From NCBI GenBank assembly GCA_964016885.1, contig OZ024740.1, positions 75,268,001 through 75,332,000 on the forward strand: DNA of 64,000 nucleotides, given 5' to 3'. Below are positions 5,237 to 58,022 of this stretch, piece by piece. The notes beneath the pieces were generated by a model. That model saw only the letters and a list, made by a program, of their open reading frames with translations. It did not search any database and was not told the origin of the DNA. The stretch's first letter is position 1; each line of letters begins with the position of its first letter. A program made the translations under genes and the position numbers. The stretch is from Eledone cirrhosa. Lineage: Eukaryota.

Positions 5237-5250
5237 TATATATATATATA

Positions 5251-5391
5251 GGAACGAGTAGGACCCCGTCGAAACGGCTTGAGCTCAGCCGTCGGGGTCC
5301 TACTCGTTCCTATTACCCACTCTACTACCTTAAGTATTGAGTACTTTGGTGCGTTATGGTCCACCTGGTTCCTTACCACATTACCTTCGTT
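5251..5391. repeat. Short fold-back repeat family carrying the 3' half of a hammerhead
   Basis: GAAACGGCU UGAGCUC AGCCGUC^GGGGUCC; other copies at 29921-30135, 31981-32172, 40981-41162 and 44568-44627, all next to (TA)n. Confidence 0.75.
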
Positions 5392-5768
<377 letters not shown>

Positions 5769-17929: not shown

Positions 17930-19900
17930 CTCAGTTATTATTGGTCATAAGTAACTCTCAGTTAATGCCGGTCAAAAGCATTTGTTACAAGGATTGTTGG
18001 CAGTATCGGTAGAGGGTCGGACGCCATGCTTTCCAGCATAGTTACGTCCCTTTACGGTCTGAGTTCAAATCCCGCCGAGGTTAACTTTGCCTTTCATCCT
18101 TACGGGGTCGATAAAATAAAGTACCAGTAATGCACTGGGTAATTGCTGGCCTTGTGCCAAAAGTAGAAACAATTATTAATCATAAATAACTTAGTTATTT
18201 CTGGTGTTAGATAGTTCCCACTTATTAGTGGCAATGTATAACTATAAGATATTACTGGTTATAACTCTCAATTAAGTTCAGTTATAATATAACACTATAG
18301 CAGAAGAAAAAGGGCTGATCATAAGTAACTTTCACTTATTACAAGGCATATGTGATTATCAGTTATTACTAGTTATAAGTAATCCATGGTTACTGGTTAT
18401 AAGTAACTGTCCATTATTACCAAGGATATGTAACTATGTAACTATCAGTTATTACTGGTCATAAGTTACTTCTGGTTATAGATAATTTGCCGTTCTTACT
18501 GGTCTCAGATAACTATCAGTTGTTACTGGTCATAGATAGCGCAGCTATTACTGGTCATAGATAACTATCAGTTATTACTAGTCATAGTTAACTATCTGTT
18601 ATTACTGGTCATAGATAACAATTAGCTATTACTGGCCTTAGATAGCACAGCTCTTACTGGCCATAGATAGAACAGCTATTACTAGTCTTAGATAGAACAG
18701 CTATTACAGGTCTTAGCACAGCTATTACTGGTCTTAGATAGCACTGCTATTACAGATCATAGACAGCACAGCTATTACTGGTTATTGATAGCACAGCTGT
18801 TAATGGTCATAGTTAACTATCAGTTGTTACTCGTCTTAGCACAGATATTACTGATCATAGATAACACAGTTATTACTGGTCATAGATAGCCCAGCTATTA
18901 CTGGTCATACATACTAGTTATTACAGGTCATAGATACCACAATTATTACTGGTCATAGATAGTACAGCTATTACAAGTCATAGTTACCTATCAGTTATTA
19001 CTAGTCATAGTTAACTATCAACTATTACTAGTCATAGTTAACAATCAGCTATTACTGGTATTAGATAGTGCAGCTATTACTATTCATAGATAGCACAGTT
19101 CTTACTGGTCATAGATAGCACAGCTATTACTGGTTAGAGATAGCACAGCTATTACTGGTTAGAGATAGCACAGCTATTACTGGTTAAAGATAGCACAGCT
19201 ATTACTGGTCATAGATAGCACAACTATTACTGGTCATAGATAGCACAGCTATTACTGGTTAGAGATAGCACAGCTATTACTGGTCATAGATAGCACAACT
19301 ATTACTGGTCATAAGTAGCACAGCTATTACTGGTCATAGATAGCACAGTTATTACTGGTTAGAGATAGCACAGCTATTACTGGTCATAGATAGCACAACT
19401 ATTACTGGTCATAAGTAGCACAGCTATTACTGGTCTTAGATAGCACAGCTATTACTGGTTTTAGATAGCACAGCTATTACTGGTCATAGATAGCACAACT
19501 ATTACTGGTCATAAGTAGCACAGCTATTACTGGTCTTAGATAGCACAGCTATTACTGGTTTTAGATAGCACAACTATTACTGGTCATAGATAACACAGCT
19601 ATTACTGGTCATAGATAGCACAGTTATTACTGGTCGTGGTTAACTATCCGTTGTTACTGGTCATAAACAGCACAGCTATTACTAGTCACGGACAGCACAG
19701 CTATTACTTGTCTTAGATTGCACAGCTGTTACTAGTCACAGTTAACTATCAGTTATTACTGGTCTTAGATAGCACAGCTGTTACTGGTCATAGTTAACTA
19801 TCAGCTATTACTTGTCTTAGACAGTACACCTGTTACTAATCATAGTTAACTATCAGTTTCCTCTGGCTATATACAACTGTCATTTGGTTTTTACTGGTCA
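17930..19900. repeat. Minisatellite, ~25-bp unit TAGCACAGCTATTACTGGTCATAGA with longer variants
   Basis: 25-bp period at 19141/19166/19191; degenerate toward both ends. Confidence 0.95.
17997..18177 (+). mobile_element. Meta-like SINE (young subfamily)
   Basis: Nearly identical to 34019-34206. Confidence 0.88.
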
Positions 19901-19910
19901 TAGTTACTTT

Positions 19911-20267
19911 TAGTTATAGATAGCTGTCTGTAGTTATAGATAGCTGTCTGTAGTTATAGATAGCTGTCTGTAGTTATAGATAGCTGTCTGTAGTTATAGA
20001 TAGCTGTCTGTAGTTATAGATAGCTGTCTGTAGTTATAGATAGCTGTCTGTAGTTATAGATAGCTGTCTGTAGTTATAGATAGCTGTCTGTAGTTATAGA
20101 TAGCTGTCTGTAGTTATAGATAGCTGTCTGTAGTTATAGATAGCTGTCTGTAGTTATAGATAGCTGTCTGTAGTTATAGATAGCTGTCTGTAGTTATAGA
20201 TAGCTGTCTGTAGTTATAGATAGCTGTCTGTAGTTATAGATAGCTGTCTGTAGTTATAGATAGCTGT
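19911..20267. repeat. Perfect 20-bp minisatellite TAGTTATAGATAGCTGTCTG, ~18 copies
   Basis: Directly visible, with no variant units. Confidence 0.98.
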
Positions 20268-20382
20268 ATTGGTCAGGTAGGCGGGTAGCTGCCTTCTAGT
20301 TGTTATTAGGACTCATTCTTGTTACATCTTTCTTTACATATTTGTTCGTCTGTATTCAAAATATCTTTCTTTGTCGCTTGGA

Positions 20383-22820: not shown

Positions 22821-23822
22821 TAATTTCAGAGAGATTCGGATTTCGGCTGTGGTCGAAAACAAAGTGAAGCGTAATATCCGAGTTATGCTGGCAAGCGCTC
22901 CATGGACCAAATAAAGGCCAGAGCAATAAACATAGGTTATAAAGGCCAAACAAACTGAGATGGCGATCAAGAAGCCATCAACCACTTAAGCCAAAAAGAC
23001 GAGGCAAGCCAAACAGGTCAAACAAAATAATTGAAATATTGAAATATATATATATATGGGGATGGCCGTGTTGCCAGTACTGCCAATAAAAAGAAACACC
23101 ATAAAATTTTCACTTTAATCTTTATTGCTCGTTATTCATTCGTTTGTCAAAGTTCTTTGATCACACATTCTGTAACTTCAATGACTATCTGTTCTCTGTT
23201 GTGCCTCTTCTTCTTTCTGGTCAAAACAAAAGACAAGATGGATTAGAAGTTTAAGAATTTATAAAATTTTGTCTTGATGCAAACTTCAAAGAACCTTTTA
23301 ATAATACATGTTTATTAATACAACATTCAGTTTTATCAAAAGATTTGTTTTGGCCTACGTATGTATCTATGGATGGAATTATACATATATATATTTAAAT
23401 AATTTTGAAAACCAAACAAAGCATTAGAAAGAAAATTAAATCGTGATTTAATTTTCTTTGTAATGAATTGTTTGGTTTTCAAAATTATTTAAATTTGTGT
23501 TTCCTAGTCAACAATCCTTCAAGCAATCTACAAAAGTATATATATATAACAAAGATAGCCGAACTTGTCAAGGGGGTACTTCCTTATATGGGAAGATTGT
23601 AGTTATCAAGAGGATTGGTTAAAATTTGTTGTAAACACAAATAAGTCTATCATGGCATTTGGTGGGAGGTAGGGGTGGCTGAACTTGCCTGTAGAACAAT
23701 AGGGGTGTGAGTGAAGTCGGTCAAGCGTTGAAAGTGATAAGTATACAGCAGATTCTAAGGATAGTGTATGAAGGGAAAGGAGACTTAAAGATCTCCTTAA
23801 TGAAAGCTCCATAGACCTCATC

Positions 23823-24993
23823 ATGTACTCTCGTTATGTAGACGATATCAATATAGTTATAAGAACACCCCCACTAGAGAGCACTAACAAGTTTGATTTA
23901 GAACGTAGCACGATGGAAAGCATCCAACAGATAGCTAATTCCATACACCAGAGTATAACTGTAACTATAGACTTCCCTTCCAAACACCCTAACAATAGAC
24001 TACCTGTATTAGACACAGAACTCTGGATTAACACTATAGACGAGAGAGCCCAAATTCTCCACTCACACTATGCTAAACCCATGGCCTCCAAATACCTGAT
24101 ACTCAAAAACTCAGCAATGTCCAGTAGTGCTAAGTTTAATATTCTGATCGCAGATTTGGTACGAGTGATGAAGAATGTGTCCAGCATGTGCGACCCAACA
24201 GAAATGGAAGGACACATCCAACACTTCATCAACCGCATGCAGTTCTCTGGCTACAACCAAAGAGACAGAGTCAGAGTATACGAAGGAGCCATGGAAAAGT
24301 ATAAGACCCTCATAGAACTGGACATGAAAGGAATTTGCCCACTATACAGGAGCAAATCATGGAATAGCTTAGATAGGGCTAGACATAAGATAGGGAAGGC
24401 CACATCATGGTACGACAACCAGAGATATCAGAGTGTCATGTTTGTGGACGCCACCCCTGGAGGGAAATTAGCTAACCAGTGTAGAAAGGCCCTGAGAAAG
24501 ACCCACTTAAAAATAAAGGTGGTAGAAAAGCCAGGAACCACCATAAAATCCCTGATCAGCAAAACCTACCCTTTTAAGAAAACCCACTGTACCAATAGGA
24601 AATGTATCATTTGTAAGGTGAATCCCCCGGATAAACTGTAAAACTAGAAACGTAGTCTATAGCATAAGATGTACAGAGAGTACTTGCAGAAACATGACAA
24701 CAACATACATAGGTGAGACAGCTCGTAGCATAGGTGAAAGGATAGACCAACACTGGGGGGAACTAAAAGGACGAAAAAACGGGTCAGTACTATACGAACA
24801 TGCTAGACAACAACATGACGGTAACATAGACAACATAGAAATTAGAATAATATCTAAACATAGGAATGACCCAGCAGATAGGCAAATCAGAGAGGCCAGT
24901 GAAATAGAAATTAGAAGACCAAAGCTAAACAGAAAGAATGAGTGGAACAACAACAACACCCAAACAAACAACACTGACCTAAGAGAAGTATAA
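23823..24993 (+). pseudogene. 5'-truncated duplicate of the PLE RT C-terminus/thumb and GIY-YIG
   Basis: ORFs 23823-24641 and 24694-24993 match the corresponding parts of the downstream copy. Confidence 0.9.
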
Positions 24994-25501: not shown

Positions 25502-28500
25502 ATGACCCTCCCCAAATATAACAATATCTGTTTCGACACACGATTTCATATAAAAACCTCGCAAAACTAATTCATCGCCGCTATGGCATTAGCTTGTGCC
25601 AAGCTGAAAGGTTATTGAAAGACACTGTTTTCTGTTATATAAAAACTACAATAACAACAGAACAAATCCGCTTCTTAAAACACTGTGTTTCCTCCAAAAC
25701 ATACACAACAAACATATCAAAACAAGTAAATAATTTATTATTGAACAAAACACAAGTTGAACAGCTAAAACACACAATAACAGTTAATATGAAAAGAACA
25801 ACATACACAAAAGTCAACGCACTCTACAGACAAAAACGCATCAACGGTAAGGAAATCCGAAATCTCATCACAGCAAACGAGAGAGATGACTTCATGAGCG
25901 TCATCCGACGCGAAACGAAATATGCTCAAAACGAATGCTGTAGGCATTTCAAGAAGAAATTAGAATGGATGAATAAGAAAAAACTACAAGAAAGGAAAAT
26001 CGAATATTCTCAAAAATACCCAGATAACATCGACAACATCCGTATGAGTGATGTAAAACTACCGGAAGAATTTACCAATGACCACACAGTAAATATCTAT
26101 GGGAACACTTTAATCAGTGAACAAGAACAACAAATCCTAAAGTTACCACCAAAATTTGCCATCTACAAAAAGATTAACCCTATGGAATGCAAAACGGAGC
26201 TGGAAAAGTGTTTCACAAAAATACGTTGGAATGCAAAGGTAAACAACAACAACAATAATAACGGTAGTAGTAATATAAACAATAACTCTGGGTATAGAAA
26301 TAACAGCCATAACCATAACAATGGCAGGAAAGTGAGAAATAGTGATAATGGCAATAATACTAGCGATAGACAGAACAACAACAACCACAATAATAATAAT
26401 AATAGAAACGTTAACCACAGACACAGCAACAGTGACCACAGTAGTAATAACGGTAACAATACGAACAACAACAACAACAATAACCACAGTGGTAATAATG
26501 GAAATAGTACATGTAGCAACATCAACAAAAACAAGAAACATAATAATAGTAACAACCACAATGGTAGAAATAGCAGTAACAACAACAACAATAACGGTGA
26601 AGTAAACAACAATACATCTAGCAATCATAACAATAATAATATTAATGCTAATGATAGAAACAACAACAACCACCATGATAACAATAATAGCAACACACAC
26701 AACTATGACGATAGAAATAACGACAACCCCTTAGAGAAACTATTTTTCAACCCAGCTGACAAAACATATAAGATGGGTAATATCTATCCTACGAGGTTAC
26801 CCTTTAATAAAAGAGTTTGCATACCACAGCAAATAGATGACGAGACGGAGGCACAGTTCACCATAGCTAGAAATAAGATTAGACAAGTAGTAGACAGGTA
26901 CACTATGAGACAGAGCAGACCAGAGGCCCAACAACTTGGGATAAAACCTGTAGAAGGCTTGGTTAGCCTCAAGCAGCGCACAAGGGATGGTGAGGTAGTG
27001 TGTCTACCCACAGATAAGTCTGGTAGGATGTCAATAGATAGCATGCCGAACTACATCGAGGCAATGCAACCCCACATCACCAACACGAGCGAAGTTGCAC
27101 AACTAACACACGATGGGAGAGAAAAAATCCTCAACGCTCACATGATGATGTGGACTGACATCCTAAAGCCAAGCAGACGCACTGCCAACAACTTCCAGGC
27201 GTCTAACAATGGCATACCACCCTTGTATGGGCTCCGCAAAGACCACAAGACAGTCGACGACCCGACAACAGGACCACCAACAAGACCCGTATGCGGAGCT
27301 AATATAGCTAGCAACTACAGGATCTCCTACTTCCTCTCAATGGTTATACGCCCCATAATCAAGATGTCCCCAGATGTATGTGAAAGTACAGAGGACCTCC
27401 TCAGCAGAATCAGTGAGTGCAACAAAAACAGGAGCCTATCCAACTGCATAATAGGCAGCATGGATGTGGTGTCACTGTACCCATCCATTAACATTGATTT
27501 TGCTGTGAAAAGATGTGTGGAGATGATCATTGAGAGTGAGGTGGAGTTCTGCGACGTCGACACAGACGAACTGGGCCTCCTACTTAGACTTACCTACGAC
27601 ACTGACTACCTAGACAGCCATGACCTTAGATGTTTCTGCCCTAGTAGACCTATAAGAGGTAGACCCCCCACCATAACCTCAATGGCTAAAAAGACTCCCA
27701 TAGGAAGGTGGATTGGGTGGACCAAAGCTATACGGACCCCCCAAAACACTGATCAGGTAAGAAAAATGGTCGCACATGCAATAGGGGCTAGTATCAAAAC
27801 TACCCTAAAGGGCCACATATTTAAGTTCAATGAGAAAATCTACACCCAAAATGAGGGAGCAGCCATCGGCGTCAGCATAGCTGGTGATGTTGCCAACCTT
27901 TTCATGGTATGGTGGGAAAGGAGACTTAAAGATCTCCTTAATGAAAGCTCCATAGACCTCATCATGTACTCTCGTTATGTAGACGATATCAATATAGTTA
28001 TAAGAACACCCCCACTAGAGAGCACTAACAAGTTTGATTTAGAACGTAGCACGATGGAAAGCATCCAGCAGATAGCTAATTCCATACACCAGAGTATAAC
28101 TGTAACTATAGACTTCCCTTCCAAACACCCTAACAATAGACTACCTGTATTAGACACAGAACTCTGGATTAACACTATAGACGAGAGAGCCCAAATTCTC
28201 CACTCACACTATGCTAAACCCATGGCCTCCAAATACCTGATACTCAAAAACTCAGCAATGTCCAGTAGTGCTAAGTTTAATATTCTGATCGCAGATTTGG
28301 TACGAGTGATGAAGAATGTGTCCAGCATGTGCGACCCAACAGAAATGGAAGGACACATCCAACACTTCATCAACCGCATGCAGTTCTCTGGCTACAACCA
28401 AAGAGACAGAGTCAGAGTATACGAAGGAGCCATGGAAAAGTATAAGACCCTCATAGAACTGGACATGAAAGGAATTTGCCCACTATACAGGAGCAAATCA

Positions 28501-29133
28501 TGGAATAGCTTAGATAGGGCTAGACATAAGATAGGGAAGGCCACATCATGGTACGACAACCAGAGATATCAGAGTGTCATGTTTGTGGACGCCACCCCTG
28601 GGGGGAAATTAGCTAACCAGTGTAGAAAGGCCCTGAGAAAGACCCACTTAAAAATAAGGTGGTAGAAAAGCCAGGAACCACCATAAAATCCCTGATCAGC
28701 AAAACCTACCCTTTTAAGAAAACCCACTGTACCAATAGGAAATGTATCATTTGTAAGGTGAATCCCCCGGATAAACTGTAAAACTAGAAACGTAGTCTAT
28801 AGCATAAGATGTACAGAGGGTACTTGCAGAAACATGACAACAACATACATAGGTGAGACAGCTCGTAGCATAGGTGAAAGGATAGACCAACACTGGGGGG
28901 AACTAAAAGGACGAAAAAACGGGTCAGTACTATACGAACATGCTAGACAACAACATGACGGTAACATAGACAACATAGAAATTAGAATAATATCTAAACA
29001 TAGGAATGACCCAGCAGATAGGCAAATCAGAGAGGCCAGTGAAATAGAAATTAGAAGACCAAAGCTAAACAGAAAGAATGAGTGGAACAACAACAACACC
29101 CAAACAAACAACACTGACCTAAGAGAAGTATAA
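25502..29133 (+). CDS. Penelope-like retroelement polyprotein (RT + Cys-rich linker + C-terminal GIY-YIG endonuclease), Naiad-like; interrupted by three 1-nt homopolymer indels
   Basis: ORF 25594-28665 has RT motifs GSMDVVSLYPSI, EGAAIGVSIAGDVANLF, YSRYVDD and LPVLDTELWI. Downstream frames give HCTNRKCIIC..NCKTRNVVYSIRC..C..YIGETARSIGER..H..S.LYEH...H. True start is probably ATG 25502 ([28 protein letters not shown], in frame in the 29644 copy). Indels at ~25552 (A5 vs A6), ~28656 (A2 vs A3 in the upstream copy) and ~28764 (C5). Confidence 0.93.
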
Positions 29134-29904: not shown

Positions 29905-30305
29905 GTATAGGTGGGTACTATAGAGTGGGTAATAGGAACGAGTAGGACCACGACGGCTGCGCTCAAGCCGTTTCAACGGCTAATTCTGGACATTTCAGTC
30001 CAGAATTAGCCGTCGAAACGGCTTGAGCTCAGCCGTCGGGGTCCTACTCGTTCCTATTACCCACTCTACTACCCTAAGTATTGAGTACTTTGGTGCGTTA
30101 TGGTCCACCTGGTTCCTTACCACATTTCCTTCGTTATATATATATATATATATATTGTTATACTTTGGGAGGGTCATGTTGCCAATAAGAAACACACGCA
30201 CCAGTTTCTTTCACTTCAATGTATTATAATAAATTTATAAATTTAGGAATTTATAAATTTCTGGTTGGTTGGTTGGTTCCACAACCAGATAGTTGTTTAT
30301 ATATT

Positions 30306-30348
30306 GTCAAACTTCTTTCGTCACACATTCTGTGACCTCTTCAGTGAC
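30306..30348 (-). ncRNA. Type I minimal hammerhead ribozyme (inverted arm)
   Basis: As 30452 but with loop 3 GAAG; a decayed relative lies at 23146-23185 (-). Confidence 0.8.
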
Positions 30349-30451
30349 TGGGGATTCTTTTCTTTGTTTTTGTGTCTCTCCTTTGTTCTGTCCTACGCCA
30401 TTTTGTTTCTGTGTGTGTGTTGAGACACAAAAACAAAGAAAAGAATCCCCA

Positions 30452-30494
30452 GTCACTGAAGAGGTCACAGAATGTGTGACGAAAGAACTTTGAC
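30452..30494 (+). ncRNA. Type I minimal hammerhead ribozyme
   Basis: GUCA CUGAAGA G GUCACA GAAUG UGUGAC GAAA GAAC UU^ UGAC. Confidence 0.8.
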
Positions 30495-31150
30495 AATATA
30501 TAAACAACTATCTGGTTGTGGAACCAACCAACCAACCAGAAATTTATAAATTCCTAAATTTATAAATTTATTATAATAAATTGAAGTGAAAGCAACTGGT
30601 GCGTGTGTTTCTTATTGGCAACATGACCCTCCCAAAGTATAACAATATCGGTTTCAACACACTATTTCAGATAAAGAATCTTGCTAAACAAATTCAGAAA
30701 CGAAATATATATATATATATATACGCATGTATGTATATTTATTATAATGCTCGGTTTGTTTGTAAACAAACAGCCCGAATTACGCCGCACAGTGTCTAGG
30801 CAACCACGTCACCTTTTTGTTTACAAACAAACCGAAAACCGATACGTGCATGTATATATGTGTGCATGTATGTATATATATATATACATACTACTGTACG
30901 TCTGTATACATATATGTATGTACGTATACATACATGCGTACTTACATTTAAGTAACTGCCGTACTAAGAGTGAGAAAATGAAATTTCGTTTCATTCTATT
31001 CCATTTATATATATACAGAAAATAATTTATAATCATGATTAATGTCATGAAATGGTTATTGTTTTATTGTTATCGAAAATGCCTCGTTATATGTGTGTAT
31101 GGTGTGTGTGTGTATGGTGTGTGTGTGTGTATGGTGTGTGTGTGGTGTGT

Positions 31151-31909: not shown

Positions 31910-31982
<73 letters not shown>

Positions 31983-32199
31983 CGAAGGAAATGTGGTAAG
32001 CAGCCATATGGACCGTAACGCCCCAGAGTACTCAATACTTAGGGTAGTAGAGTGGGTAATAGGAAAATGTTTAACCCCGACAGCAGAGCTCAAACCGTTT
32101 CGACGGCTATTTCAGTCCAGAAATAGCCGTCGAAACGGCTTGAGCTCTGCCGTCGGGGTTAAACATTTTCCTATATATATATATATATATAATAATTAT

Positions 32200-33024: not shown

Positions 33025-34000
33025 TAAATCTCTGATCAGCAAAACAAACCCTTTTATGAAAATCCACTGTACTAATAAGAAATGTATTATATGTAAAGTA
33101 AACTCCCGGATAAACTGTAAAACTAGAAACGTAGTCTATAGCATAAGATGTACAGAGGGTACTTGCAGAAACTTGACAACAACATACATAGGCGAGACAG
33201 CTCGAAGTATAGGTGAAAGGATAGACCAACACTGTGAGGAACTAAAAGGACGAAAAAACGGTTCAGTACTATACGAACATGCCAGACAACATGACGGTAA
33301 CATAGACAACATAGAAATTAAAATATCTAAACATAGAAATGACCCAGCAGATAGGCAAATCAGAGAGGCCAGTGAAATAGAACTTAAAAGGCCAAAGCTA
33401 AACAGAAAAAATGAATGGAATAACAACAACGCCCAAACAAACAATACTGACCTAAGAGAAATATAAATAAATAAATAAATAAATATATACACAATAACAA
33501 CAAACACATATAAACACACACTAGTAAACTAAGATAGAATACAATAACCAAAACACAGTCACCCAAACACGAACACACACACCAATCACTATACACACAC
33601 GCAAACGCATGCGCAGAGAAGACAAAAATAAATAAATAAATAAACAGATAAAATAAAAATGGCGTAGACATACAATACAACAGGAGGAAACATAATAGCA
33701 CCACTGATGATGTTGCAGGTGTGCAACGAAAGAACTTTGTTAGACTATATATATGTGTTTATATCTATATTATATCTGTATTTTTTACCCTTGGTCAGTC
33801 AATGATAAACATTGAGGACCGAATGAATTAAGTGTGGAGATATAACAGATACAGAAGCGAAAATCAACCAAACAGTGAGTGTGTTCTGTTATTATTTCTG
33901 GTAATATTATTACAACAATATGACCCTCCCCAAGTATAACAATATTTGTTTCGACACACGATTTCACATCAAAAACCTCGCAAAACAAATTCATCGCCAT
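33025..34000 (+). mobile_element. 5'-truncated copy of a related Naiad-like PLE subfamily (GIY-YIG + pLTR)
   Basis: ORF 33056-33466 is closely similar to the GIY-YIG above and in frame across the linker. The pLTR is homologous and ends at AATTCATCGCCAT before TA repeats. Confidence 0.9.
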
Positions 34001-34018
34001 TATATATATATTTATATT

Positions 34019-34206
34019 GGTGGTGGATTGGCAGTATCGGTAGAGGGTCGGACGCCATGCTTTCCAGCATAGTTACGTCCCTTTATGATCTGAGTTCAAA
34101 TCCCGCCGAGGTTGACTTTGCCTTTCATCCTTACGGGGTCGATAAAATAAAGTACCAGTAATGCACTGGGTAATTTGCTGGCCTTGTGCCTAAAGTAGAA
34201 ACAATT
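34019..34206 (+). mobile_element. Meta-like SINE (young subfamily)
   Basis: Nearly identical to 17997-18177. Confidence 0.88.
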
Positions 34207-34267
34207 ATATATATATTTATATTTATATATATATATGAGTATGTATGTGTATATATTTCTATATATA

Positions 34268-34336
<69 letters not shown>

Positions 34337-34339
<3 letters not shown>

Positions 34340-35077
34340 GAAACACACAGATACATGCGGACGCACACATATATACATGAATGCATCTGCACCCAACTGT
34401 GAGTTAAGGGTGCCGACTTCACCGATGTTGCTCAATGAATGACTGGGACAGACCAATTCAGTTTGAACTAGACTGAACCAGTATCAGAGTTAAAAATACA
34501 TTATGAAGAGAGAAGAAACATTTAGATATAATTAGTAATAAAATGTATCATACCTAAACTGTTCCTAAATTCCTCTAAATTCCTTAACTCACAGTTGGGT
34601 GCGGATGCATTCATGTATATATGTGTGCGTCCGCATGTATCTGTGTGTTTCTAAATATATTAATAACTCCCTCTGGTCGAGCAATCTTTGAGGTGTGGGG
34701 ACAACTGGAAAGCTTCCATTACTCATACTTCTCGCCTTCTTCACTACCTCTTCTACGGCCTCGATATGAATACCCCCTCCGCCTCCGTGGTATTTTCTTC
34801 GTGGTTATAAGAGGCTTAGCTCTGTTTCTCGACCGTTATATCGCGTGACTATCTCCCCCTCCGCCTTTTGGGATTCTTTCTCACGTCGTGTAGACGCGTT
34901 CTTGAGACTAGTAAAATGAGGTATCCTCTTGATAAGTCGGCAGACCTCGCAAGGACTCTATATCTTTGATATATTGTTTTTGTTTATGCCACGAAACTAC
35001 GTGGTCGAGGAATTTAGGAACAGTTTAGGTATGATACATTTTATTACTAATTATATCTAAATGTTTCTTCTCTCTTC

Positions 35078-35081
<4 letters not shown>
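34337..35081. mobile_element. Head-to-head non-coding HHR module (~590-nt circularly permuted unit)
   Basis: 34337-34411 is inverted at 34582-34656; 34501-34575 is inverted at 35007-35081. Confidence 0.8.
34924..35011 (+). ncRNA. Type I hammerhead, U3-A8 core variant, large loop 2
   Basis: UCCUC UUGAUAA GU(C)GGCA..UGCCAC GAAAC UACGUG GUC^ GAGGA. Confidence 0.78.
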
Positions 35082-35151
<70 letters not shown>

Positions 35152-37640: not shown

Positions 37641-37792
37641 CCGGGAGGATAAAGGTTATCTCGGCAGGTGTGAACTTAGAATACAAGGAGCTCGAATAAA
37701 TACCACAAGGTATTTTGTCCAATGTACTAACACTTCTACTACATTGACTATACTCTTCTTGTGTGAAAATAAGAAATCGATATATAATAATT

Positions 37793-38640
37793 ATTTCTAC
37801 TTTGGCACAAGGCCGACAATTATCACAGTGCATTACTGGTACTTTATTTTATCGACCTCGTAAGGATGAAAGGCAAAGTGAACTTCGGTGGGATTTGAAC
37901 TCAGACCATAAAGGGCCGTAACAAAGCATGGCGTCCGACCCATACTGCCAATCCACCGCCCTTCGATATATAATAATTGTTTCTACTTTTGGCACAAGGC
38001 CAGCAATTACCCAGTGTATTACTGGTACTTTATTTTATCGATCCGTCAGGATTAAAGGCAAAGTTAACCTCGACGGGATTTGAACTCAGAATGGAAAGGG
38101 CTGTAACTCTATACGTCAAAGTATGACGTCCGACCCTCTACCAATACTGCCATAATGATTTTAAAATATACATCTTTAAGACAAACGTAGTTGATATAAT
38201 GGCATCTATCTATACGATTAATAATGATTATATGGAAGTTGGAAAGATGAACAGAAAAGGAACTTAAAACGCAATGACCCGTACAAACATCCCAAAGGGA
38301 TTACCCCCTCAATCTGAGGATTGTTCCAATCAAGCACCCAATAATAATCGTTTCTACTTTTTGCACAAGACCAACAATTTGAAGGGAACGGGAAAATTGA
38401 TTAAATCAACTCCAGTACATTACTGGTACTTTATTTTATCGACACCGTAAGAATGAAAGGCAAAGCTAACCTTGGCGGGATTTGAACTCAAAATGAAAGA
38501 GTCGGACTGAAATACAGCAAAACATTCTGTCCAGCACGTTTGTGCCACTACCTTCGCTTCTTGTTTCTACTTTAGGCACAATAATAATTTCTAGTTTCTA
38601 CTTTAGGCACAAGGCCAGCAATTACCAGTGCATTACTGGT
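37793..38640 (-). mobile_element. Cluster of Meta-like SINEs (37793-37960, 37975-38151, 38345-38540, partial 38562-38640)
   Basis: Repeated core. The first copy has TSD TCGATATATAATAATT at 37777-37792 and 37963-37978. Confidence 0.85.
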
Positions 38641-40918: not shown

Positions 40919-40982
<64 letters not shown>

Positions 40983-41229
40983 CAAAGAAAATGTGGTAAG
41001 AAACCAGGTGGACTATAGCGCACCAGAGTACTCGATACTTAGGGTAGTAGAGTGGGTAATTGGAAAAGAGTCAGGACCCTGATGGCTGAGCTCCGGCCGT
41101 TTCGACACCTAGAGCTATCGAAATGGGCTCAACTCAGCCGTCGGGGTCCTAACTCTTTTCCTATATATATATATATAATATTTATCTGCATATATATGTA
41201 CATGTGTGTTTGTGTGTCTGTGTGATACG

Positions 41230-41826
41230 AGCTGCCCTCACCCGCACCCCAGAAACCGACCATACCACAGCCCTGTCACCCCACACCCGCCTTACTTTCC
41301 TCTGATCTACCACCCCAACACCCTACATCCCCAGCGACACATCCTCATTTGCTTCCGCACCCTCTCCTCTGACACCGTCACTTCTCGCTTCTTTCCAAAC
41401 CCTCCCATCCACACCTTTAAGCGCGTCCGTAATCTCCGTGACCTGGTACGCAGTTCCTTCTCTTCCTCAACTAGGGCTCCACCCGGCTCTCGTCCCTGTT
41501 CTTGTTCCCACTATAACACCTGTCCCTTCATTTCTAACCTCAACACTTTCATAGGCACTAACAGTTCTATCCGTATCCGCTACTCCTTCACCTACACATT
41601 CACCCATGTAGTCTATGCCCTCAGCTCTTCCCTTTGCGGGTCCATATACATCGGTCAAACAGGCAGCCGCTTGGTGGACCGTTTTGTTGAACACTTGATG
41701 GACATAAGACTCGGCATGGATACCCCCGTCGTTCACTATTTCCGTTCACGAGGCCACTCCCTCTATATGTCTCAGTCCTTGGTATTCTTTTACATCACGG
41801 ATCCTACTGTACCATACGTAAAATAA
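41230..41826 (+). pseudogene. Degenerate PLE linker + GIY-YIG fragment (Neptune-like)
   Basis: PLIYHP..FKRVRNLRDLVRS..PCSCSHYNTCPFI..HVVYAL...CGSIYIGQTGSRLVDRFVEHLMDI..PVVHYF. Confidence 0.8.
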
Positions 41827-43302: not shown

Positions 43303-43880
43303 CCATATATATATACATTTATATTACGTTTTAATCATTTTCTAACCCAGAAAAACGAGAGAAATAAATAAATGGGTAAAAAAATTTGATTTATTAGGTT
43401 CACGCTCTTGAGAGTGGGGCGGGCGTGTATATATATATATATATATATATTAGGATTGGTGCTCTGAAATAGCGATGTATACATGAATGTATGCATAGTA
43501 TATTTGGCAATATACGGTATGTTTAATTAAAAACATTTTGAAGACCTTACGCTATCATTTTTAAAGTAGTGACTATGTCACTTACTTCTTGTCGGCGAAA
43601 GAAGGGAGAGAAGCTAACAGTCTGTTAGCTTGTATATATATATATACAATATAAAGAAATACACAGATACATGCGAATACATACACATGCATGCATATAC
43701 GCACATATATCCCTGAATTTGTGTGGTGCCAACCTTAACCGTTGTTGCTCTTTGATTATTAATAGGGACAAAATAATCTGAATGAATTAGATTGACTCTA
43801 TATCAGAGCTATATAATACATTATAAAGAAAGAAGAAACATTAGACATAAATAAAACATAAATACCCAATATTCCTCTTC

Positions 43881-43974
43881 ATTCTCGACTGCGCAGTTTC
43901 GTGGCTACTTTGCAAAAACATTACATCATAGAGATGCAGTATTTCTGTGAGGTTTGCCAACTTATCAAGAGAAT
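43881..43974 (-). ncRNA. Type I hammerhead, U3-A8 core variant
   Basis: AUUCUC UUGAUAA GU(U)GGC..GCCAC GAAAC UGCGCA GUC^ GAGAAU. Confidence 0.8.
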
Positions 43975-44447
43975 ACCTCATTTAGAGTTTCAAAATACGT
44001 CTGCAAGGCGCGAGAGTGAACCCGGAAAGGCGGAGGGGAACTTATCACGTGATACAGCGGTCAAGAAACAGAGTTAAGCTTCTTACAACCAAGAGAAAAA
44101 TACCACAATGGCGGGGGGGGGGGGGTATTAATATCTAGGCTAGAGACGAGGTGGCTAAAGAGGGCTAGGAGTGTAAATAGTGTCACTATACTTCTGTGGT
44201 TACTCTACCGTAGGGAGTTATAGACAATATAAAGAAATACACAGATACATGCGAATACATACATATACATGCATATATGAACATATATCCCTGAATTTGT
44301 GTGGTGCCAACCTTAACCGTTGCTGCTCTTTGGTTGTAAGAGGCTTAACTCTGTTTCTTGACCGCTGTATCACGTGATAAGTTCCCCTCTGCCTTTCGGG
44401 GTTCTCTCTCGCGTCTTGCAGGCGTATTTTGAAACTTTAAATGAGGT

Positions 44448-44541
44448 ATTCTCTTGATAAGTTGGCAAACCTCACAGAAATACTGCATCTCTATGATGTA
44501 ATGTTTTTGCAAAGTAGCCACGAAACTGCGCAGTCGTGAAT
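44448..44541 (+). ncRNA. Inverted copy of the U3-A8 hammerhead
   Basis: As 43881-43974, with one stem I mismatch (GUGAAU). Confidence 0.7.
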
Positions 44542-44624
44542 GTAGAGGAATATTGGGTATTTATAATGGACTGAAATAGCCGTCGAAACGGCTTGAGCAC
44601 TGCCGTTGGGGTCCTGAACATTTT

Positions 44625-44677
<53 letters not shown>

Positions 44678-44824: not shown

Positions 44825-44906
44825 GTTATTCCGGGTTGAATCGGAGGTAACCACAGTAAGTAAGGTACTCAATACATAGCAGAGTATAATAGTTTTAATA
44901 TAGATG

Positions 44907-44957
44907 AGATTCTACAGGACTAGAACTGTTTCATTCATTAGAAATCATCAGGAATCT
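44907..44957 (-). ncRNA. Type I hammerhead ribozyme (inverted arm)
   Basis: Reverse complement of 45643-45693. Confidence 0.82.
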
Positions 44958-45642
44958 GGGTATCAAAAAATAAATATGGTATTTATAGGTCTCTACAAGT
45001 GGTAGGAGAGGGTGGGGAGTGGGATGGGTGCAGGTCATTGGTTGATAGAGAAGGGAATTCATTAAAGGCTAATTCTACATAGCTATAGTTAATTTATATT
45101 TATTTATGTTTTTAGAGTAACAAAGGCAGACAGAAATCTATAAACAAGTTCCGGATGGCATACCATTCCTTGTCAATAAGTTTCTCTTAAGCTAGCAGAT
45201 GTCTATAAAATCAGTGGGGGGTCATTCATGCTCGATAGAATTAAAGAAAAGGGAGATTCTTTAAAAGCTAAAGTCATTAAGTTCTGCTAAGTGACAAAGG
45301 TCTAGGGAATTCTGCAGAATTAATGACTTTAGCTTTTAAAGAATCTCCCTTTTCTTTAATTCTATCGAGCATGAATGACCCCCCACTGATTTTATAGACA
45401 TCTGCTAGCTTAAGAGAAACTTATTGACAAGGAATGGTATGCCATCCGGAACTTGTTTATAGATTTCTGTCTGCCTTTGTTACTCTAAAAACATAAATAA
45501 ATATAAATTAACTATAGCTATGTAGAATTAGCCTTTAATGAATTCCCTTCTCTATCAACCAATGACCTGCACCCATCCCACTCCCCACCCTCTCCTACCA
45601 CTTGTAGAGACCTATAAATACCATATTTATTTTTTGATACCC

Positions 45643-45693
45643 AGATTCCTGATGATTTCTAATGAATGAAACAGTTCTAGTCCTGTAGAATCT
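45643..45693 (+). ncRNA. Type I hammerhead ribozyme
   Basis: AGAUUC CUGAUGA U UUC UAAU GAA U GAAACAG UUCUAGUC CUGUA^ GAAUCU: 6-bp stem I and 4-bp stem III. Confidence 0.82.
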
Positions 45694-45705
45694 CATCTAT
45701 ATTAA

Positions 45706-45752
<47 letters not shown>

Positions 45753-49309: not shown

Positions 49310-51086
49310 ATGGTGGCTGCCAACTCGTTTTCGAGTACAGCCACTACTTTACATCCATGTAGGAGAACCCCTACCGATGCGCTGAACGAGTGTGACTTTT
49401 TAGTCCAGCCAGCGACTTGAAAACTCTGGTACAAACACTACACTTGTGACAATTATTGACACATAGTGCTGAGCCTATGGTACCATGTGACGACAAGTGC
49501 AGAGAGATCTCCAGATATAAAGCAATGCCTGTGTTGTGAAGCTTTTATAGTGAGCAAAGGCACTGCACAAAGCCAGTCCCACTCTCTTAACCAAGATGAT
49601 ATTTACCAAAAAGAAAAACAAGTCAACATCATTGGATACCATCAGGGTTGCAGGTGTTATATCAGAGTTTTCCTTCTCCTAGAATTCTGCCTTGACAAAG
49701 GCTAAGGGGTCATACATACATACATACATACATGGTGGCTGCCAACTCGTTTTCGAGTACGGCCACTACTTTACATCCATGTAGGATAACCCCTACCGAA
49801 GCGCTGAACGAGTGTGACTTTTTAGTCCAGCCAGCGACTTGAAACCTCTGGTACAAACACTACACCTGTGACAATTATTGACACATAGTGCTAGGCCCAT
49901 GGTAGGACAATTATTGACACATAGTGCTGGGCCCATGTGAGGACAAGTGCAGAGAGATCTCCAGATATAAAGCAATGCCTGTGCCGTGAAGCTTTTATAG
50001 TGAGCAAAGGCACTGCACAAAGCCAGTCCCACTCTCTTAACCAAGATGCTATTTACCAAAAAGAAGAACAAGTCAACATCATTGGATACCATCAGGGTTG
50101 CAGGTGTTATATCAGAGTTTTCCTTCTCCTAGAATTCTGCCTTGACTAAGGCTAAAGGGGTCATCTCTCCCGGTGATTTGGATGGCCATTGACTCTTAAG
50201 AGCTCCTTTGCCCTTTGACAGGTTTTGTTATACATACATACATACATACATACATACATACATACATACATGATGGCTGCCCCCTCGTTATCGAGTATGG
50301 CCATTGCACGATATACCACTATTAATAATTATTAATTAATTCTATCGTGCCGGTGGATTGGCAGCATCGGCAGAGGGCCGGATGCCATGCTTTGACGCAT
50401 AGAGTTACGACCCTTGCCATTCTGAGTTCAAATACCGCCGATGCAAACTTTGCCCTTCATCCCTACGGGGTCGATAAAATAAAGCACCAGTAATATACTG
50501 GGCAATTGTGGCCCTGTGCCAAAAGTAGAAACAATTAATTAATTCTATCGTGCAATGCCTGTGCGTGAAGATATTTTTAAAGTGAGGAAAGACTGTGCAC
50601 TGAGCCAATCCCACTCTCTGAGCGACAGTAGCTATAACCCGAAAAGAAGAAAAGATCAACATCATCGGTAACTACTGAGCCGCAGGTTTTATATCGGAGT
50701 TATCCCAGTTTCCTGAGTTGCCTTCTCCTAGAAGAATGCCCTGAGAAAGGCTAGGGGTCCTTCACTCCCAGTGGTTTAACCGCGTGATCGGGTGTCCAGC
50801 CCGACTATTTCTATGTCCCTGTGCATATACATACACATGCACCCATGTATATACACACATACATATACATACATATGCTCATGTGTATATACATATTTAC
50901 ACACTTTTGGATGGCCGTTGACCCTTATGAGTTCTTCCGCCCTTTGTCAGGTTTTGTTTTTTGTCCTGCCGGGTGTCCAAAATCACCCTCCTCACCAAGT
51001 AAACTTGGTGGGGTTGCCGGTTTAGTCACCGACGACCCGACCATGCGACAAGGTTGTACTGGGTTACATGTTACCAGTAGCACTCA
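49310..51086 (-). mobile_element. Tandem non-coding RTE-5'UTR-like elements with (TATG)n tails
   Basis: Units at 49310-49710 and 49733-50228, plus a diverged unit 50271-51086 split by a SINE. The minus strand has CTAGGAGAAGGAAAACTCTGA, which resembles RTE leaders. Confidence 0.55.
50351..50533 (+). mobile_element. Meta-like SINE with 20-bp TSD
   Basis: TSD ATTAATTAATTCTATCGTGC at 50331-50350 and 50534-50553. Confidence 0.88.
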
Positions 51087-51252: not shown

Positions 51253-51675
51253 ACACAATACAATTATTCCATTTACCAAAGGTTTCACGAAGACAGGCGA
51301 GCTCAATAGAGACGTCTGAAATCGTTCATCAGAATGTACGCCTGCCGCCTGTATTTTCCGATTCTTAGCCCACTGAGATTAGTGGTTGGCATCCCTTCGC
51401 CACGATGAGGCGTCTGGCGAGACCAGGGGAATCATCAGAGGTATCATATATATATATATATGTAATAAAAAACACAATACAATTATTCCGTTTACCTCGC
51501 CTGTCTTCGTGAAACCTTTGGTAAATGGAATAATTGTATTGTGTTTTTTATTACATATATATATATATATAATACCCCTGATGATTCCCCTGGTCTCGTC
51601 GGACGCCTCATCGTGGCGAAGGGGTGCCAACCACTAATCTCAGTGGGCAAAGAATCGGCAAATACAGGCGGCAGA
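51253..51675. mobile_element. Head-to-head HHR module, ~219-nt period
   Basis: ACACAATACAATTATTCC at 51253 and 51472; arms ~51342-51496 and 51520-51675 are inverted. Confidence 0.75.
51270..51336 (-). ncRNA. Type I hammerhead ribozyme with extended stem II
   Basis: CAUU CUGAUGA ACG..33 nt..CGU GAAACC UUU GGUA^ AAUG. Confidence 0.78.
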
Positions 51676-54600
51676 CGTCGGGTTAGCAACCCCGCACTGC
51701 TATAAAAATTCTAACCGCTAAAGAAACAGCAAGAACCCCCCCCCCCCCCCCCAAATGAACGGCGTAAAGATGAAGGCGTGGGAAATACTCCACTCTTGAC
51801 GGACCTCGACCAAAGCTGAAAGGACGTTGGGGTTCCGATGAGCCGGATTCTGAGCACCAAAACAAAGATGATTGGAACTTGGAACGTGCGTACACTATAC
51901 CAGGCAGGAAAGCTGGCTCAGCTACTTCGCGAGTTCGACCATTACCAGCTAGACATTCTGGGCGTGAGTCAAATGCGCTGGACCCGCAGCGGAAAGATGA
52001 GTGGCAGCGGAGACACAACTCTGCTCTACTCTGGACACCATGACAAGCACGTTCATGGCGTTGGACTTGTGCTTAGCGCCCGAGCAACTTGAGCATTGAT
52101 CGGATGGGAGCCAGTCAGCGAGCGCATCATAACCTCCCGTTTTCAAATTGGGCATGCGAAAATCACTGTTGTTCAGGGCTACGCACCGATTGATGACGCA
52201 TCCGACATCGACAAGGACGCCTTCTACGAACAGTTGCAGGACACACTTGCCCAGCCATGACATCAAACTACTGATCGGTGATTTCAACGCTCAGATTGGC
52301 TGCAACAGACAGGGACTGGAACAGGTCACTGGGTCATTCGGTTGTGCTGCGGTCACCACGGACAACGGCCAGAGACTACAGCTGTTTTGTGCCATCAACA
52401 GCTTGTGTATTAGCAACACCTATTTCAAACACAAGGCGATTCACAAGGCTACTTGGCAGTCTCCGGACCAGAAAAGCTGAAACGAGATCGACATCAGCAT
52501 CAACCAGCGCTGGCGGTCCTCAGAGTGTACCGAGGTGCGGACGTGGGCTCAGACCACCACCTACTGTGTGCGGAACTGCAGCTGCGCCTGAATAAACGGA
52601 CACGACAGGAAAGACCAAAGCCATATGCAGTGGAGAAGCTGAAGTATCCCGGTCAAGCGCGACTGTACCAACTGGCGCTACATAACCGATTCCAACAGTT
52701 GAGTGAGGCTGCAGATCTGGAAGAACAATGGACGATGTTCACGGGAGCGGTGACTGAGGCAGCACAAGAAACTATTGGCCGAAGACGAAGAACGAGGAAG
52801 GAAAAATGGATCCAAGAACCAACGTGGGACTTGATTGACAGACGAAAAAAGGCAAAAGTCGAGCGAGATTCTGCCAGATCGGAGGAAGACCAAAAGAAAA
52901 GAGATGCCGTATACCGCCAAATAGACAGACTGGTAAAGCGAAGCTGCCGGCGGGACAAACGTGACTGGCTGGAGAAAAGGGTGCTGAGGCAGAGGAAGCT
53001 GCTGGTCGAAACGACACAAAAGCACTGTTCCGCATCGTGAGGGAGTTGACAGGAATTTCGAGCGGTGCCAACATGCCAGTGAAGGACAAAAATGCCAAGG
53101 CGTTGACCACTGGAGCGGAACAGGGGCAGAGATGGATGGAGCACTTCCGGGAGACGCTGAACCAACCAAATCCGGTCGCCCTGATAGACTTGACCGCAGA
53201 GACTCCAGCAACCACTGAGGTACTCAAAGTCTGCGAGGACCATTTCACCAAGCAAGAGACGAGAGATGCGATTAGCAACTTGAGGAACGGCAAAGCAGGA
53301 GGACTGGATGAAATCTCTGCTGAGCTGCTCAAATTCGGTAAGGAGAGCACGATAACGGCGTTGACAGACTTGATGAACCACTGCTGGAGGGTTGGTCGGG
53401 TTCCCCTTGAGTGGCAGCGCAGTGTCATCGTCAAACTGCCGAAGAAGGGAAACCTGGCAGACTGCAATAACTGGCGTGGTATCACATTGCTGTCAGTCCC
53501 AGGCAAGGCGTTCTGCACTGTGCTGCTGCGTCGACTCCGGCAGGCTGTCGACTCTGTGATCCGGGAGGAACAAGCCGGCTTCCGAAAAAATCAATCTTGC
53601 ACGGAACAGATCTTTACACTACGCAACATTCTTGAACATTGCGTTGAGCTACAACAGCCTTTGGCGGTCAATTTTATTGATTTCCAGAAGGCATTCGACA
53701 GTATACACCGGGAGTCGCTGTGGAATGTTGTGCAACTGTACAGCATTCCAAGATTCATCGCCATTTTCAAGGCCCTGTATGAAAACTCCAGCTGCTGCGT
53801 GCGGACTGAGTCCGGTGTGACGGAGTTCTTTGACATTGTCTCCGGAGTCAGACAAGGTTGCATTCTCTCTCCACTGTTTTTCCTGCTGGCAGCCAATTTC
53901 GTACTAAGGCGAATAGATGAAGGACCCGGTCGAGGAATCCCATGGATAGGGCAGTCGTGGCTGAGGGATCTGGCATTCGCCGACGACATCGCTTTGATCG
54001 CTGAAAACAGTGCAGATCTGCAGGCGCTAACAACATCCCTACAAGAGAGTGCGAAAAGATCGGCCTGAGAATCAAAACCAAAAAGACCAAGGTCATGAGA
54101 GCGGCCAGCAACACAGGTCCAGTGATCAGAGTCAATCAACAGGACCTCGAGGAAGTCGATCACTTCACCTATCTGGGCAGCATCCTGACAAGCAGCGACG
54201 ACGCGGAGCTCGACATCAACTGTCGTATCGGCAAAGGAGCCGCAGTTTTCCAGCGGCTGTGCCCAGTCTGGTCGTCTTCATGCATTAGCACCAAGACCAA
54301 GCTCCGCCTGTACAAGAGCATCGTGCTGCCGACAGTGCTTTATGTGAGCGAGACCTGGAAGAGTATGGCAAAAATAGAGAGACGGCTGAATGCTTTCCAC
54401 CAGCGGTGCCTGCGAAAGATCCTTCGTGTGTCCTAGCGCGACCGAGTGCCAAACGAGGAGATCCTGCGGAGAGCCGAGTCGTGGACGCTACAGAGGGTGG
54501 TCACGGAGCGTCGGTGCCGTATGGCTGGCCATATTCTGCGTCTGCCAAATGAACGGCATTCGAAAACAGCGATGAACTGGACTACGCCTGGCGGTAAACG

Positions 54601-56520: not shown

Positions 56521-57837
56521 CGTCTAATCCAGGAATTAAATTCGACATAATTACGTTTTTTTTTTCTTCGGCAGTTTAGAATGAGAATCAGACTGAATGT
56601 TTTCGCCGTCCTTACGCCTCATGAAGAATCGCTTGTTTCCCCCTTCTAACCTGCCAAACGTCAATGAGGGAAAGCTACTTAGTAACATGTAAATGCTATT
56701 GTGCCACCAGGAACAACTCATTTATATAATGGTATAAGGTTGACGAACCTACATAAACCCTATTGTCTAACTATGGAGTCTAAGTTCACAGTATGACTAA
56801 GTATATATATATATGGATATAACTTCAATATACATATTCATCTGTACAAGATATTAGCATACCTAATATATTTTGGTAATTGCAAATAAGAAATGCTTTA
56901 TTTATGTATACATACGTGGCTATACAATCATTGGTTTTTCCTGTTGTGATTCAGTCTATATGTCCATTTATTGCTTCTTTTGTTCAGTTACTTCACCCAT
57001 TCTCCCAAGTGTTAACCATCCCAAAGCTGGTACCTTTTCAAAAGCATCTCCATCAACTTTATATCAAACTCCGCTGTTATTTTTCCATTAACCCAGATTG
57101 ATAAGACAGAAACACCTCTACTTCCCAACTCAATCCTATTGATATGTGTTCCACTATATCTATTGATGTGAATTAAATGACACTAAAACATAGTTGTTTG
57201 TTTCAAGGAGCAGTAACTTCACACTATTCTCAAGCCTGGACTCATTAACTTCGGGAAGGCGCCATATTCCCAACATCGATTAAATTGGATCAAAGATACA
57301 TAATGCTTTTTAGAATGAAGAAAATCATACCTTCACATTAGTTATTGTACAATACACAAATAATTCACACTAAGTATATTTATTATCTGATATGCTATAT
57401 CAAACCATATATCTAGATTCAATTATGTCATACGGCCTTCCATATATAACATTATAACAGGAACAAGTCAATCTATATTGTCATTAAACTCTCCTTTATT
57501 GAAAACCTCTACTCACTCCCCCTTCTCTACAACATCTGCTACCACCACTATCTCCCTTTAGAACACAGAATTCTGCGTCAGCAAAAGCAATGTTTCACCC
57601 ATTTATCTGCCCTTGCTAAATAAATCAATATATACCATCATACATTGGCTCATAGTTTACTAATATTTTCCTATAACCCAATCAATTTTGAAGTGTGTGT
57701 ATCTATGTGCCAATGTAGTCATCACGCCACGACGCGTGTGCGGTTTAATGTTTGGCCATCGGAAACGATCACTGCAGGCCCCTAAAAACGAAGTCCCAAT
57801 ATAGCCACAGACAACATATTGAAACTAGTAAAATAAT

Positions 57838-58022
57838 TATTTCTACTTTTTGGCACGAGGCCAGTAATTAGTCAGTGCATTACTGGTACTTTATTTTAAC
57901 GACCCCGTAAGGATGAAAGGCAAAGTTAACCTCGGCATGATTTTAACTTAGACCGCAAAAGAACGTAACTCTATGCTGCAAAGCATGGCATCCGACCCTC
58001 TACCGATGCTGCCAATCCACCT
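57838..58022 (-). mobile_element. Meta-like SINE with 13-bp TSD
   Basis: TSD CTAGTAAAATAAT at 57825-57837 and 58023-58035. Confidence 0.85.

Follow-up and report, generated by a model that had tools for sequence, protein, structure and literature searches.

The locus described in this study raises the question of whether the point at which a reverse-transcribed copy ends may preserve the trace of an RNA that was cut by its own ribozyme in the living cell. It is located in a stretch of 64,000 nucleotides from the genome of Eledone cirrhosa (contig OZ024740.1, positions 75,268,001 to 75,332,000), hereafter termed the window, and consists of two arms in inverted orientation, the right of which contains a predicted hammerhead ribozyme (Table 1). 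In a first-pass annotation, the left arm, read on the minus strand, was proposed to begin at 34575, with its homology ending at the GUC cleavage site. This geometry holds on inspection: the reverse complement of 34502-34575 is identical to 35007-35080 at 74 of 74 positions, the following base (34576) is a T, and upstream of the junction only 1 of 20 positions matches.

Table 1. Location of the insertion, its parts and related elements in the window. Unit positions are counted from the predicted cleavage site, with +1 as the first base after GUC.
Feature	Position	Strand	Remarks
Left (TA)n target flank	34240..34336		Outer edge approximate
Left (inverted) arm	34337..34575	-	Unit +1 to +239/245; 3' terminus at RT start site B, joins (TA)n; 98.4% identity to family consensus
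6-nt linker	34576..34581		With 34575 repeats left-arm +5..+11
Right arm	34582..35080	+	Unit +167 to +74/80, reading across the uncut cleavage site; 3' terminus at RT start site A, joins (TA)n; 99.2% identity to consensus
Predicted type I hammerhead	34924..35011	+	U3-A8 core; stem III palindromic, stem II with a long insert; cut predicted at 35006/35007
Right (TA)n target flank	35081..35147		Outer edge approximate; adjoins right arm
Diverged relative (71-77%)	43649..44545		Head-to-head arrangement; compensatory changes in its two U3-A8 hammerheads
Second family, inverted insertion	5248..5392		Minus arm from 5267 to site A (+20); plus arm terminates at site B (~+99)
Third family	43448..43632	-	Junction 43626 keeps 5-11 nt upstream of predicted site (+1 = 43615)
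Fourth family, inverted insertion	51338..51678		Minus arm at 51494 keeps 3-4 nt upstream of predicted site (+1 = 51492)

All parts of the hammerhead, which the same annotation had placed at 34924-35011 with cleavage predicted after the GUC triplet, could be located: stem I is formed by 34924-28 and 35007-11, the core UUGAUAA by 34929-35, the GAAA by 34993-96 and the GTC by 35004-35006. With a core of the form C3(U3)-UGA-N-G8(A8)-A, the GAAA, an NUH site and three stems, the motif displays the features of a type I hammerhead with U3-A8, a known core variant, and is predicted from its sequence to be self-cutting. U3 is present in 220 of 220 and A8 in 223 of 223 sampled units, with G5 being changed in two. 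When compared to a relative of ~72% identity (43886-43975), 57 of 60 cells are paired in a set of four sequences representing two lineages only, and two pairs have changed on both sides, one each in stems I and III. At position 35003, 239 of 242 sampled units have an A; the G present in the window turns a U-A pair of stem III into U-G. A search of Rfam at the gathering score returned no matches. Natural U3-A8 cores were stated to be active in vitro (PMC3088659), and U3-A8 covariation was described in the Cercyon elements of Schistosoma, in a text that reports weak in vitro cleavage of metazoan Penelope-type hammerheads (PMC4209133). These ribozymes share the core covariation, a stem II rich in unpaired nucleotides and a palindromic stem III with the motif of the window, whereas the latter has a stem III of 4 bp and belongs to a young homogeneous family instead of constituting a heterogeneous single motif. 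The hammerhead of the right arm (34924-35011) was left uncut during copying, this arm reading through its cleavage site with no stop. The ribozyme that would have been cut would sit upstream of the left arm, outside the window, and its U3-A8 core can be presumed from the sampled units.

At the flagged join, the linker and G 34575 form a 7-nt duplication (Table 1), so that the 5' end of the left arm can be placed at either +1 or +2. The linker is likely a templated insertion primed by a 3-nt microhomology, and the same microhomology join, in this case without duplication, is found at a second locus (L247). Taken alone, the flagged junction is weak evidence and proves little.

Both arms are permuted pieces of a single 591-nt unit, which was built from the window and whose spacing was confirmed by tandem copies elsewhere. 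Counting by sequence-pattern matching, we find 7,168 exact matches (426 + 6,742) to a 23-nt anchor at +16..+38 in the 3.0 Gb genome, and arms exceeding 300 nt show a mean identity of 98.1% to the consensus. The unit has a GC content of 41.6%, which is below 50%, and is non-coding, with a longest stop-free stretch of 86 aa in the six frames of a dimer. Arms reach up to five head-to-tail units (2,907 nt) with one predicted hammerhead per unit. In the RNA sense, their 3' ends are found at two fixed places, site A at ~+80 (+74/80) and site B at ~+245 (+239/245), and are followed by (TA)n in 261 of 276 cases. No LTR, PBS or PPT is apparent among the mapped element ends. By these sequence features, the element is a young non-coding tandem repeat of the non-LTR retrozyme type, as defined by Cervera and de la Pena, 2020 (PMC7229834). 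It resembles metazoan non-LTR retrozymes in its non-coding head-to-tail units with one type I hammerhead each, its GC content below 50%, its dispersion in short arrays and the proposed dependence on Penelope, but differs from them by its U3-A8 core and long stem II insert. At 591 nt, the unit is longer than the 150-450 bp first described (PMC7229834) and within the 51-972 bp of a recent preprint by Li et al. (bioRxiv 10.64898/2026.07.22.740005), which linked retrozymes to Penelope pLTRs and found one of nine tested dimers to be cleaved. The mapping of insertion ends and inverted arms described here is not part of the accessible text of either work.

The hallmarks of Penelope-type insertion, an inverted 5'-truncated arm, a one-sided tail and a microsatellite target, are all found in this family, and its mobilisation by Penelope-like machinery is likely. 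Among 285 fetched loci, none yielded an autonomous partner, and 7 contain pieces of Penelope-like ORFs, none of which is contiguous with the family. The window encloses a 1,047-aa stop-free frame with a long Asn-rich insert (25522-28665, plus strand; partial copies in tandem at 23766-24945 and 33026-33458), which by its motifs looks like a Penelope-like RT; related pieces occur in 6 of the 285 loci. A 215-aa frame at 41179-41826 (plus strand), which has no Pfam match, contains a GIY-YIG-like motif and is presumably the remnant of a Penelope endonuclease. The 591-nt element shows no similarity to the Penelope-like ORF locus of the window, and Pfam assigned no family to three of four window proteins, including the Penelope-like ORFs. 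The Asn-rich insert of the longer frame resembles the N-rich inserts of Adineta Penelope (PMC3846280). Sequence common to the flanks of this ORF is also found in a 227-nt inverted repeat (30152-30648), whose plus arm contains, near 30450, a minimal C3-G8 hammerhead identified by eye. Further repeats of the window include a perfect 392-nt inverted repeat with a 39-nt spacer (44889-45711), a broken non-LTR retrotransposon with an RVT_1 domain (52414-54068, plus strand; Pfam E=4e-27), a dispersed repeat of ~185 nt that appears SINE-like by eye (17997-18176, 34019-34208, 37780-38152, 50352-50537 and 57829-58021) and minisatellite arrays of 25 nt and 20 nt (18460-19800 and 19880-20280).

If occasional cleavage had shaped the copies, their 5' ends should accumulate at the GUC site across the genome. 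We find an exact start at +1 in 28 of 7,168 units, four of which share one junction, leaving ~25 independent events (0.4%), and 99.6% of units do not stop there. In 47 insertions taken in genome order, the 5' ends are scattered along the unit and only the one of the window is found at +1. Exact matches to +1..+23 number 2,935, and the C at -1 is missing from 15 of them, which comprise 11 true junctions and four point changes. The background, counted with an identical filter, amounts to 6.3 junctions per nt at -38..-14 (CI 3.9-8.6; 314 matches, 15 of 30 checked being junctions), to 7.5 at -13..-1 (CI 5.0-10.6) and to 8.9 at +18..+46 (CI 6.2-11.3; 408 matches, 19 of 30 checked being junctions), and rises to 13.3 (CI 10.5-16.3) in the interval +1..+15. 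The rates for -13..+15 are based on the first 100 of 426 rows, 92 of which were processed by script and yielded 86 labelled junctions, 11 of these being reclassified as point changes or internal indels to leave 75, and the remaining eight rows were judged by eye as read-throughs. The count at +1 is about three times the flanking rate, and the Poisson probability of 25 events is 7e-6 relative to a rate of 8.9 and 0.003 relative to 13.3. Three sequence subfamilies and many different flanks are represented among the +1 events, and we thus rejected a single truncated master copy as their source.

The shape of this excess was analysed in a junction profile for which 76 and 63 further rows (139) were tallied by eye and from which point changes, indels, rows at +16 or beyond, the junction of the window itself and one duplicate were removed. 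Among 169 junctions at -12..+15, 25 are located at +1/+2 compared to 14.0 expected from a null model that uses the real flanks (p=0.003). Positions +9/+10 are more enriched, with 32 observed against 11.4 expected from the same model. Within +1..+15 alone, the 25 of 126 junctions at +1/+2 compare to 18.7 expected and are not significant (p=0.08). The profile is a step at the site with a modest excess and contains no single sharp or dominant peak. Plotting 5' ends against the cleavage site, as envisaged in the first-pass annotation, hence reveals the approximately threefold excess at +1 but not a dominant or unique maximum.

The behaviour of the +1 arms provides a second line of evidence. Where one arm of an inverted event starts exactly at +1, its partner ends within 21 nt in 6 of 12 cases compared to 6 of 81 other events (Fisher p=0.0008). 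From this post hoc test, 19 of 100 pairs were excluded, either for a +1/+2 arm or because they had been retrieved for their shared ends. Independent stalls at ~1% per pass would not give arms with the same end, whereas this is expected if both arms share one template end or if a run-off cDNA folds back. Seven of the ~25 +1 arms had crossed an earlier site. At locus L238, the arms end at +2 and +5 and both lack one base in the same unit, which is consistent with a linear dimer that had been cut at its front only. In L238 as well as in L253, differences between units occupy matching registers on the two arms; together with the arms that had crossed an earlier site, they fit linear, partly cut multimers. 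Across the family, the numbers lend modest indirect support to rare cleavage in vivo, and the excess at +1 likely records occasional cutting by the ribozyme in living cells as a minor route.

A more pronounced regularity concerns the opposite ends of the arms. In 100 distinct inverted insertions, we find 90 that combine sites A and B, one A+A, no B+B and nine with a non-standard end, so that A+B accounts for 90 of 91 standard cases (p=4e-26). Insertions with a single arm use both sites at comparable frequency (38 A, 34 B and one other). In 21 inverted insertions of the second family, where the sites are found at +20 and ~+99, 19 are A+B, one is B+B and one other. The complementary use of two RT start sites is thus strongly supported. 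Two independent insertions at the same (TA)n site would have made same-type pairs as common as A+B and were rejected (p=4e-26). Classical L1-style twin priming, with one RNA and a blocking primer, was rejected since in many inverted insertions, including the one of the window, both arms exceed the spacing between the priming sites in length. Of 38 insertions with at least 150 shared sites, 8 show more than 1% divergence between the two arms, and most of these, besides L194, look simply older. In L194 (C1:112860616-112863667), the arms belong to different subfamilies and differ at 14 of 26 diagnostic sites while still pairing A with B, which suggests that two RNAs were used in one event. An asymmetric enzyme dimer that assigns one start site to each target strand would account for this pairing.

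The first-pass annotation had further placed the junctions at 5267, 43626 and 51494 at or within a few nucleotides of their cleavage sites. Of these, 5267 fits, as it corresponds to -1..+3 and is located inside a microhomology; the arms at 43626 and 51494 also end within a few nucleotides of their sites but retain upstream bases, which a cleaved RNA would lack. The second family, to which the junction at 5267 belongs, is short and very abundant, with 2,000 matches to a filtered pattern alone. Its copies include the loci L262, L279, L281 and L285 and, in the window, 5248-5392, 29921-30134, 31982-32174, 40982-41160 and 44567-44629, and those sampled mostly end within ~45 nt upstream of the site. 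In the first 100 of the 2,000 matches, 59 junctions were called by eye, 30 of them over -16..-1, 10 at +1, nine at +2 and 10 at +3..+5. The 19 of 56-59 junctions at +1/+2 correspond to p=1e-6, computed without a microhomology null. We initially regarded this pile-up as a replicate of cleavage and downgraded it once the core proved to be mismatched: in four of four long copies, it reads CUGAGAA or CUGAAAA, so that C3 and A8 are mismatched, with a GC-rich stem III downstream. The pile-up may reflect RT stalling, and not every such accumulation can be read as cleavage.

Together, these observations lead us to favour, with moderate confidence, a reading in which a Penelope-like RT, working on mostly uncut RNA, generated the locus as an inverted copy of the 591-nt hammerhead element, with a left arm that has a roughly even chance of deriving from a self-cleaved molecule. 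The latter estimate takes into account that about one third of the +1 junctions (~8 of 25) is expected from background and that other causes have to be allowed for. In the enzymology that we infer, a Penelope-like RT-endonuclease would act in trans on the non-coding RNA of the element, with mostly uncut multimers as template. The dimeric enzyme would nick both target strands, with +80 serving as the start of one cDNA and +245 as that of the second. Both cDNAs would stop at scattered places, and short microhomologies would connect them to each other in head-to-head orientation or to the target. Roughly 1% of passes would end by run-off at an RNA 5' end that the hammerhead had opened, the cDNA often being trimmed back by a few bases, which would generate the hump at +1..+15.

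The strongest competitor, which we consider fairly unlikely although it accommodates several of the data, ascribes the excess at +1..+15 to RT stalling at the folded hammerhead combined with favourable microhomology, and thus to ordinary truncation without any cut in the RNA. It accounts for the accumulation at +1/+2 in the second family despite its mismatched core and GC-rich stem III, for the top bin at +9/+10, for the recurrence of the 3-nt microhomology of the flagged join at +2 (L247) and at +10 and for the large fraction of units without a stop at +1. Conversely, stalling before stem III predicts ends at -1, where three junctions are observed compared to 4.7 expected and no excess is found, independent stalls would not stop both arms together in half of the cases, and +1 is a G following a C, which gains nothing from microhomology to (TA)n. 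The proposal that the end at 34575 was left by a self-cleaved U3-A8 RNA in vivo is accordingly only in part sustained: the genome-wide excess and the behaviour as template end speak in its favour, and the 99.6% of units that read through, the equally high +9/+10 bin, the pile-up on a mismatched core and the two of three other junctions upstream of their sites speak against it.

In the published model for retrozymes, efficient cutting would be followed by circularisation of the monomer and rolling reverse transcription across the re-ligated site, with +1 ends originating from re-opened circles. Since this scenario also implies cleavage in vivo, it does not conflict with the initial interpretation of the junction. 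It is consistent with arms of up to five units, with an almost invariant core, with the uniformity of common variants within insertions (175 of 219 variant-bearing site comparisons) and with 13 private variants that are fixed in all of at least three units compared to four that are partly shared. However, private variants and small subfamilies are indistinguishable in 150 insertions sampled out of thousands, and L238, L253, L181 and L250 show differences from unit to unit, three of them in the same register on both arms, a pattern that a single circle cannot give. We thus regard rolling-circle copying as improbable in this family. Single cyclic contigs of 620/621 nt were set aside as evidence for circles, as a tandem repeat fits equally well. 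Finally, a transcription start or an already truncated source copy in place of a ribozyme cut, although it would explain same-end arms equally well and although Penelope pLTRs carry promoter-like motifs (PMC3846280), appears highly improbable in light of +1 events in three subfamilies with many flanks and of the required coincidence with the exact NUH site.

Several properties of the family have counterparts in known systems. Insertions of EN+ Penelope-like elements equally show 5' truncation, partial tandems and an adjacent inverted 5'-truncated copy (PMC8557442, PMC3846280), as well as 5' junctions with microhomology, a bias for (TA)n and a tail that is often found at one end (Craig et al., 2021; Arkhipova et al., 2013). 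Their tails measure 30-40 bp compared to 165 nt in the present element and 78-80 nt in the second family (PMC8557442, PMC3846280), and the element differs further by the absence of an ORF and by a one-end rule that is near-absolute (90 of 91). The closest functional parallel is provided by Poseidon PAc of Anolis (Frangieh et al., 2024; PMC11167929), which shares two internal RT starts downstream of the hammerhead, an AT-rich target with both strands being nicked and extended, a predicted dimer and a mostly uncut RNA template. In the accessible part of that study, cleavage is dispensable and no RNA-seq reads end at the site, whereas we detect a small genomic excess of ends there; also, the two strands of PAc did not differ in start site in vitro, whereas the arms described here use opposite sites. 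Our literature search, which for most hits covered the listed entry, returned none in which genomic 5' ends are mapped to a hammerhead site or start-site pairing is counted, and the accessible text of PMC13282606 does not mention ribozymes.

What hammerheads do in Penelope-like elements, and how the inverted arms and one-sided tails of these elements arise, were both named as open questions (PMC8557442). The present family quantifies both: cleavage-like ends are real but rare, with 0.4% of passes at +1 and ~1% if the trimmed hump is included, and RT start sites are strictly opposed. The sole in vitro system had found cleavage to be dispensable (PMC11167929). Tentatively, and with a probability that we place slightly short of even, the copies might be viewed as a fossil record of an obligately asymmetric RT dimer that sometimes engages two RNAs and of templates of which ~1% would carry a 5' end cut by a U3-A8 hammerhead. 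If true, this record would constitute genomic evidence for the cleavage of Penelope-type hammerheads in vivo.
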